Shown here piece after piece: positions 24,631 through 24,764 of a stretch of DNA of 36,673 nt; position 1 is the stretch's first letter; the number at the start of each line of letters is the position of its first letter. Origin of the DNA: Escherichia coli (lineage in GTDB: Bacteria > Pseudomonadota > Gammaproteobacteria > Enterobacterales > Enterobacteriaceae); NCBI RefSeq assembly GCF_003334315.1, contig NZ_QOWR01000049.1. One strand, 5' to 3'. Under the pieces are notes generated by a model. That model was not told the DNA's origin. It saw only the letters and a program-made list of their open reading frames with translations, and did not search any database. The position numbers and the translations under genes were made by a program.

Positions 24631-24737
24631 CCACTATTCCGCTGAAGGCGTAATTGTTTAAATAACATTACGCCGCCTGGCCTTAGGCCTTTTGAGTATG
24701 GCAACGTTTTCATAAAAATTGCTGCAAACAAAAATGT

Positions 24738-24764
24738 CATACTTTTTGCGCGGGCCCACCCCGC
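24738..24764 (+). terminator. Strong intrinsic terminator downstream of adiA
   Basis: GCGCGGG-cccac-CCCGCGC followed by 8 T, ~108 nt after the adiA stop. Confidence 0.8.

Follow-up and report, generated by a model that had tools for sequence, protein, structure and literature searches.

What does the sequence between adiA and adiY of Escherichia coli encode, if anything beyond the end of the adiA mRNA? The question was raised by a 36,673-nt stretch of DNA (contig NZ_QOWR01000049.1 of assembly GCF_003334315.1; hereafter, the window), which corresponds to the E. coli chromosome from cadCBA through rdcAB and is 99.56% identical to K-12 MG1655 over 36.4 kb, while representing another strain. Its plus strand carries adiA (22360–24630), adiY (24955–25716) and adiC (25853–27190) in this order. 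A sequence-only reading had pointed to the segment 24640–24764, which falls within the adiA 3′ untranslated region (3′UTR; ~144 nt in total), as a possible source of a processed small RNA (sRNA). The last ~85 nt of this 3′UTR (24690–24774, plus strand) most probably constitute an E. coli ortholog of AdiZ, an sRNA known from Salmonella, with a mechanism assigned by homology, because synteny, sequence and fold agree.

AdiZ (formerly STnc1180) is a Salmonella sRNA of ~95 nt, cut from the adiA 3′UTR by RNase E and stabilised by Hfq (Kanda et al., NAR 2025, PMC12746102). It starts 12 nt past the adiA stop codon, just ahead of a run of eight U; cleavage occurs directly upstream of this run, and deletion of the 8 U lowers AdiZ (PMC12746102). 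AdiZ requires AdiY (and thus the adiA promoter), RNase E and Hfq, is maximal at pH 5.5 without oxygen, and is absent without AdiY or without induction of the upstream promoter (PMC12746102). It is a repressor of pykF, ptsG and dmsA, acting by means of three seeds, G10–A19, C28–U36 and G37–U60 (PMC12746102). Homologs of adiZ form three clusters, namely those of Escherichia-Shigella, Citrobacter and Salmonella, among which the Hfq module is nearly invariant and the remainder variable (PMC12746102). This module consists of a U-rich tract, the terminator hairpin and a poly-U tail (as cited in PMC12746102, ref. 12).

The element is therefore already known as AdiZ, while its E. coli copy is absent from RefSeq, the K-12 annotation and Rfam. 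RefSeq lists no feature between adiA and adiY in K-12, although other sRNAs, including the 3′UTR-derived FliX, are annotated. Searches of Rfam 15, over 24000–25400 at a permissive E-value and over the whole window at the gathering score, returned no family at the locus and no AdiZ or STnc1180 family there; the best match at the locus, AgvB with 21.9 bits (gathering score 56), covered the terminator only. The earlier remark that no annotated RNA is known here holds for RefSeq and Rfam, but not for the literature, which describes AdiZ.

Homologs were sampled from 80 adiA loci on contigs representing one genome per species, and 26 homologous 3′UTRs were aligned and folded. An nhmmer profile built from 18 Citrobacter and Salmonella adiA 3′UTRs, with no Escherichia sequence included, gave a single significant match in the 36.7-kb window, at 24708–24773 (envelope from 24684, E = 1.2e-14). 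This match reached well past the terminator into UUGCUGCAAAC and UGUCAUAC. The element occupies the same place as in Salmonella, directly after the adiA stop, on the same strand and upstream of adiY; the adiA stop, the element and adiY lie on one strand in 5416 of 5426 complete E. coli genomes. Full-length matches to the core profile were confined to Escherichia, Citrobacter and Salmonella, which are the three clusters described in the published work, and in Kluyvera, Yokenella and Hafnia the match ran through the terminator only. In Xenorhabdus, Kosakonia and Providencia, either the next gene or an unrelated terminator comes within a few dozen nucleotides after adiA, with nothing AdiZ-like; AdiZ is thus not an obligatory companion of adiA.

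Escherichia, Citrobacter and Salmonella have in common the arrangement ...UUGCUGCAAA(A)C...UGUCAUAC(C)-U4–6-GCGCGGG...CCCGCGC-U6–8. In the alignment, E. coli UUUUGAGUAUGGCA (24690–24703) lies opposite Salmonella UUUUUUUGAGGAUGGCA, which comprises the sRNA 5′ end plus seed 1, and the E. coli loop ACGUUUUCAUAAAAAU lies opposite Salmonella UGUAUUCCCUGAGUAU, which holds seed 2. According to fold and alignment, the body of the predicted sRNA is a main stem-loop (24694–24744, plus strand) with a 10-bp stem, formed by the arms GAGUAUGGCA (24694–24703) and UGUCAUACUU (24735–24744), and an A/U-rich loop of 31 nt. RNAalifold applied to a MAFFT alignment of the 26 3′UTRs gave the terminator alone, the 5′ arm being misaligned between clades, and the sequences were consequently folded separately. 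Folded singly, all 26 homologs showed a long stem closed by an invariant 3′ arm, followed by a U-run and then the terminator. The core of the 3′ arm, UGUCAUAC (24735–24742), was invariant in 26 of 26; with this arm fixed, the main stem shows one-sided changes only and no true covariation.

The 3′ end is an intrinsic terminator with its U-tract (24748–24774, plus strand), supported by fold, terminator scan and alignment. It reads GCGCGGG-CCCAC-CCCGCGC at 24748–24766, with seven G-C pairs (stem 24748–24754 / 24760–24766, loop CCCAC) followed by 8 T at 24767–24774; six of the pairs are invariant across the 26 sequences. Directly 5′ of it lies the U-rich tract UUUUU (24743–24747, plus strand), invariant in the alignment and the putative first element of the Hfq module. 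As far as sequence can tell, the Hfq-type module of U-tract, 7-bp GC stem and U8 is complete in E. coli and (near-)invariant in the 26 homologs. The terminator would serve both to end adiA transcription and to form the Hfq-binding 3′ end of the sRNA. The base at the seventh stem position (24754) is G in the window, C in K-12 and T in the majority of E. coli and other Escherichia. The G restores the seventh G-C pair found in Citrobacter and Salmonella, with a hairpin energy of −14.4 versus about −11 kcal/mol. None of the 3755 matching complete E. coli genomes was identical to the window over 24725–24784.

The fold itself is more stable than expected by chance. A 148-nt stretch was more stable than 200 of 200 dinucleotide shuffles (RNAfold, z = −3.4), the 85-nt core by itself gave z = −2.8, and the 10-bp main stem was present in both the minimum free energy and the centroid structures. 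A simple terminator scan found two sites versus 1.6 expected from shuffles, with no enrichment; the significance of the structure consequently rests on the fold z-scores and, far more strongly, on conservation.

To assess conservation, the window was set against genomes of E. albertii, E. whittamii and cryptic clades. Identity was 72–81% at third codon positions of adiA and 72–84% in the adiA-adiY spacer past the terminator, and reached 95–99% in the predicted sRNA (24690–24774; Fisher's test against third positions, p from 3e-4 to 5e-9). The 59 nt immediately upstream were 86–98% identical. Judged by these identities, the predicted sRNA is under strong purifying selection within Escherichia. 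Across 5411 complete E. coli genomes, a 60-nt core occurred in essentially two haplotypes, the K-12 type with 3632 exact matches and a further 1773 genomes at 95–99% identity; among the records listed in this search, no annotated feature was found there. The second haplotype, which accounts for most of the 1773, has a G-to-A change at 24694 and one extra A in the A-run (24730–24734). It also carries the 11-nt insertion CCTTTTTTTAG after 24788, in the adiA-adiY spacer.

The steps leading from adiA to the sRNA can be proposed by homology. AdiY, an AraC/XylS-family activator of adiA and adiC (assigned from the open reading frame (ORF) list and from RefSeq annotation of matching genomes), would switch on the adiA promoter under acid and anaerobiosis, as shown in Salmonella and presumed for E. 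coli. The parental mRNA would carry the coding sequence of adiA (22360–24630, plus strand; stop TAA at 24628–24630), a 756-aa arginine decarboxylase recognised in the same two sources. Transcription would halt at the terminator 24748–24774, giving a 3′ end at 24772–24774. RNase E would then cleave the 3′UTR, most likely at the U-run 24690 and possibly in the loop at 24708 or 24718. The run UUUU at 24690–24693 (plus strand) is by alignment the positional homolog of the Salmonella U8 run at the RNase E site, which places the predicted 5′ end of E. coli AdiZ at ~24690. The strict RNase E motif RN/WUU has no match at 24690 and matches at 24707/24708 and 24717/24718, the latter unpaired. Products of 85, 67 or 57 nt are all conceivable because the cut site is poor and the loop contains RN/WUU motifs. 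Hfq would retain the released fragment via the U-rich tract, the terminator hairpin and the poly-U tail, and the fragment would repress target mRNAs by pairing with their translation-initiation regions. Arginine-dependent acid resistance would thereby be coupled to glycolysis, glucose uptake and dimethyl sulfoxide (DMSO) respiration.

This anatomy differs in part from that of the sequence-only reading. The proposal of a processed sRNA from the adiA 3′ region is supported by the published Salmonella ortholog and by synteny, sequence, fold and purifying selection. Its three hairpins were all found in the sequence and all predicted by RNAfold, and the GC-rich terminator with 8 U was recovered as described. 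The inventory was nevertheless incomplete, since the biggest hairpin (24694–24744), by homology the body of the sRNA, had been overlooked. The first two hairpins lie upstream of the predicted start at ~24690, on the adiA mRNA side. The terminator, placed ~108 nt past the stop, has its stem beginning 117 nt after the stop (24628–24630), and the proposed end at 24764 is a position inside the terminator stem, the RNA 3′ end being expected in the U-tract at ~24772–24774.

The two upstream hairpins form a module of their own. Hairpin H1 (24647–24674, plus strand; fold and alignment) consists of GGCGUAAU...AUUACGCC, with 8 bp between arms 24647–24654 and 24667–24674 plus an inner extension. Hairpin H2 (24679–24689, plus strand; fold) is a weak GGCC-UUA-GGCC structure of 4–5 bp that abuts the U-run; together with UUUU it was scored as a weak terminator-like site in a consensus scan. 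Both are confined to Escherichia and the Citrobacter amalonaticus/sedlakii clade; neither Salmonella nor the C. freundii group has them. In H1, 97.5% of alignment cells were paired and two of eight pairs were changed on both sides (G-C to U-A, A-U to C-G), while H2 showed one-sided G-C to G-U changes only. Within Escherichia the H1 module is 86–98% identical, against 72–81% at third positions of adiA. After cleavage, H1 and H2 would stay on the adiA mRNA side and could shield the new mRNA 3′ end from exonucleases; such a protective cap is a reasonable guess. The sharing of H1/H2 with the C. amalonaticus clade, with compensatory changes, is also put forward as new, by inference from the alignment.

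The regions that pair with targets in Salmonella are precisely those that differ in E. coli. The 5′ arm GAGUAUGGCA is identical to Salmonella seed 1 (GAGGAUGGCA) at nine of ten positions, with a central G-to-U change (GAGUAUGG). Seed 2 (CUGAGUAUU, C28–U36, which pairs with ptsG at C-19) is not kept; its homologous columns read UCAUAAAAAU in all Escherichia sequences, and the related heptamer UGAGUAU is found in the E. coli 5′ arm instead. The published analysis likewise states that Escherichia adiZ has not conserved the SgrS-like seed for ptsG, and that AdiZ of Salmonella and Citrobacter contains the core seed of SgrS and binds ptsG at the same site (PMC12746102). Of Salmonella seed 3 (GCUGCAAAACAAUAAUACUGUCAU), both ends (GCUGCAAAC and UGUCAU) are retained in E. 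coli and the middle is shorter and altered. Alignment assigns to this seed the conserved UUGCUGCAAAC block (24719–24731, plus strand), which includes UGCAAACAA at 24723–24731. The Escherichia-specific loop sequence CGUUUUCAUAA (24705–24715, plus strand) takes the place of the Salmonella/Citrobacter ptsG seed CCUGAGUAU.

Pairing of the E. coli sRNA body with the three validated Salmonella targets was evaluated by contiguous Watson-Crick runs, since whole-body RNAduplex predictions gave long, loop-ridden duplexes of little meaning. Three null sets were used, drawn from genomic segments, from dinucleotide shuffles and from 107 start regions with annotation. The longest runs were 11 nt for dmsA, 9 nt for ptsG and 9 nt for pykF. 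Not one of 5000 dinucleotide shuffles had runs of at least 9 nt for every target, and the sum of the run lengths gave a shuffle p of 0.0002. Among the 107 real E. coli start regions, 4.7% reached a 9-nt run and 0.9% reached 11 nt.

For dmsA, the loop CGUUUUCAUAA forms 11 contiguous Watson-Crick pairs with positions −2 to +9 of the E. coli mRNA (UUAUGAAAACG), covering the start codon. A run at least this long occurred in 0.15% of 110-mers drawn at random from the genome, in 0.24% of dinucleotide shuffles and in 0.9% (1/107) of annotated start regions. Both E. coli haplotypes carry the 11-mer, as do E. albertii and E. whittamii, and 5410 of 5424 genomes have an identical dmsA site. On the sRNA side the segment is accessible, with opening costs of 2.2 (sRNA) and 1.7 (target) kcal/mol and a net energy of −6.8 kcal/mol. 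Salmonella AdiZ has no run of at least 7 nt with the E. coli dmsA start region. For ptsG and pykF, the G-to-U change in seed 1 disrupts the match to the pykF site CCAUCCUU and yields nine Watson-Crick pairs (12 with G-U) at ptsG −24 to −13, the site of SgrS and Salmonella AdiZ. This segment is buried in the main stem (opening cost 9.2 kcal/mol, net −3.0 kcal/mol). The block UGCAAACAA forms nine Watson-Crick pairs with E. coli pykF +17 to +25, at the edge of the range in which initiation can be blocked. Complementarity in E. coli thus uses other sRNA nucleotides than in Salmonella, and for dmsA and pykF other target sites as well.

Taken together, this pattern allows a tentative proposal, which we hold to be possible and rather less likely to be right than wrong, that Escherichia AdiZ underwent seed turnover without regulon turnover. 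Under this proposal CCUGAGUAU was overwritten by CGUUUUCAUAA, seed 1 changed from a pykF type to a ptsG type, the shortened seed 3 came to match pykF codons 6–9, and H1/H2 would cap the processed adiA mRNA. In Yokenella, Kluyvera and further Enterobacteriaceae, which fall outside the three published AdiZ clusters, a UCCUGAGU motif (an SgrS-like anti-ptsG seed) occurs 10–30 nt before a GCGCGGG-type adiA terminator. This distribution points to an older and wider-spread minimal form made up of seed and terminator, Escherichia being the lineage that lost the seed.

Two further matches in MG1655 concern the same sRNA loop or the same screen. The AdiZ loop has two distinct stretches of 9-nt Watson-Crick complementarity to msrP, which encodes the methionine sulfoxide reductase of the periplasm: UUAUGAAAA, located at the start codon, and CAAUUUUUA, located at +13 to +21. 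They may be due to chance, the loop being complementary to any AUG-AAA-A start, and are worth recording as methionine sulfoxide is likewise reduced by DmsA. Among the 107 start regions, the sole further run of at least 11 nt was an A/U-only 11-nt match, AAUUUUUAUGA, in ftsZ at −62 to −52, far upstream of the start codon and probably due to chance.

Several observations weigh against assigning AdiZ and its mechanism to E. coli. The homologous cut site, CC/UUUU, offers 4 U between two helices versus 8 U in Salmonella, so that the 5′ end, and even efficient processing, is uncertain in E. coli. [quoted passage not shown] Our literature searches returned no E. coli northern blot, RNA-seq, Hfq co-immunoprecipitation, RIL-seq, CLASH (crosslinking, ligation and sequencing of hybrids) or Term-seq data for the adiA 3′UTR. 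The validated and most widely conserved ptsG seed is missing from its homologous position in Escherichia, and the alternative ptsG pairing is weakened by the G-to-A change at 24694 in about one third of E. coli genomes and in E. albertii, with no compensating change in ptsG. Loop-permitting RNAduplex energies are unexceptional, being equalled by 6%, 10% and 36% of random genomic segments (25-nt windows), and net energies after opening costs are modest (−6.8 kcal/mol for dmsA, −6.3 for pykF and −3.0 for ptsG).

Some of these points would fit a plain 3′UTR, in which the terminator ends adiA and insulates adiY, the hairpins stabilise the mRNA, and either no sRNA is made or AdiZ function has decayed. 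The adiA terminator has indeed been cited as attenuating transcription of downstream genes (PMC12746102). A plain 3′UTR would also be in keeping with the lack of E. coli expression data in the literature, the short and poorly accessible U-run at the homologous cut site, the lost ptsG seed of the loop, and a terminator stem that is weaker in most E. coli (−11 versus −14.4 kcal/mol with G at 24754). Decay, however, predicts drift, yet the loop and seed-3 region, dispensable to a terminator or stabiliser, is 95–99% conserved versus 72–81% at synonymous positions. The complete Hfq module (U-run, hairpin, U8) has moreover been kept, and complementarity to all three Salmonella targets is above chance. 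On balance we regard this explanation as unlikely, while still the most serious competitor of an AdiZ ortholog. Another alternative would keep the sRNA and have it transcribed from its own promoter within the adiA 3′ end, as a primary and not a processed product. Such type I 3′UTR sRNAs exist, DapZ and MicL being examples, and the poor RNase E motif at the homologous E. coli cut site would suit this origin. A sigma-70 consensus scan of 24000–25400 found no plus-strand promoter-like site, which is weak evidence, as the scan also misses the adiY promoter. Salmonella AdiZ needs RNase E and is absent without AdiY or upstream-promoter induction (PMC12746102), which makes an internal promoter very improbable.

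A small protein is the least credible of the explanations, although two small reading frames exist mechanically, a 45-codon minus-strand ORF (24603–24740) and a plus-strand mini-ORF, MATFS, starting at 24698. In E. coli 648, Escherichia sp. E1V33 and E. albertii the minus-strand ORF differs in both frame and length, and the corresponding sequence in Salmonella and Citrobacter is unrelated; the plus-strand ORFs comprise just 3–7 codons. The nucleotides themselves are highly conserved, with indels tolerated in the H1 loop and the A-run, a pattern that is RNA-like rather than protein-like. Coding ORFs were consequently rejected as lacking conservation. For the upstream hairpins alone, occurrence in some lineages only (Escherichia and the C. 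amalonaticus clade) could point to a dispersed, mobile or REP-like (repetitive extragenic palindromic) repeat unrelated to adiA or AdiZ function. A 401-nt query including H1/H2, however, gave a median of one match per E. coli genome and a maximum of two, no Rfam match was found, and conservation of the module exceeds that of synonymous sites, H1 showing compensatory changes. The repeat was rejected as the sequence is single-copy, and we consider this origin highly improbable.

If the segment is the AdiZ ortholog, it combines a shared framework with local differences. Besides its position, it shares with Salmonella AdiZ the 3′ half (UUGCUGCAAA(A)C...UGUCAUAC, U-run, GCGCGGG...CCCGCGC terminator, poly-U tail), the two-hairpin architecture and a U-run that aligns with the one at the Salmonella RNase E site. 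In contrast, the E. coli 3′UTR is longer (144 nt versus about 106 nt in Salmonella), the distance from stop to U-run is 59 nt with two hairpins versus 12 nt, and the U-run has 4 U versus 7–8. In the loop, Salmonella seed 2 is the anti-ptsG CCUGAGUAU versus CGUUUUCAUAA in E. coli, and seed 3 is shorter in E. coli. The E. coli 5′ arm UUUUGAGUAUGG can pair with the SgrS site on ptsG (−24 to −13) through nine Watson-Crick and three G-U pairs. SgrS, the sRNA of glucose-phosphate stress, is nevertheless not homologous, being encoded at another locus and made differently, and E. coli AdiZ has UUGAGU rather than the full 6-nt core CUGAGU. By analogy, the element would belong to the type II 3′UTR-derived, Hfq-dependent sRNAs, such as CpxQ, NarS, GlnZ, SdhX, MalH and FliX, which share the mRNA terminator, are released by RNase E, bind Hfq at the terminator module and have functions tied to the parental gene (PMC12746102 and textbook knowledge). 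These sRNAs are unrelated to AdiZ in sequence, and FliX is in the K-12 RefSeq annotation, whereas adiZ is not.

Elsewhere in the window, melB (18095–19539, minus strand) reads as two ORFs of 312 and 169 aa that overlap, one base being missing at ~19063 relative to MG1655; barring a sequencing error, this strain seems to have a frameshifted melB. Rfam matches at the gathering score were obtained for STnc630 (178 bits; 30672–30837, minus strand), between basS and proP, and for two copies of the naRNA4 (CssrE) repeat at the window end (36503–36579 and 36603–36673, plus strand).

The discovery value of the locus as such is small, as the Salmonella work of 2025 both named and characterised AdiZ and took note of its homologs in Escherichia. 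Left unannotated in RefSeq, K-12 and Rfam, adiZ will keep being rediscovered by sequence-only scans. E. coli is the model organism of the Adi system, and we found no published AdiZ expression or target data for it; a ΔadiZ strain of E. coli MG1655 has been built, with E. coli serving there as a reporter host only (PMC12746102). Potential novelty is limited to the seed turnover specific to Escherichia, which is suggested by sequence statistics. The E. coli copy differs exactly in the seeds and yet is strongly conserved in the genus, which would make it a clean test case for how a 3′UTR-derived sRNA rewires its pairing under an unchanged parental gene and perhaps an unchanged regulon. If the turnover is real, E. 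coli AdiZ would link acid resistance to DMSO respiration and glucose catabolism via base pairs unlike those of Salmonella.

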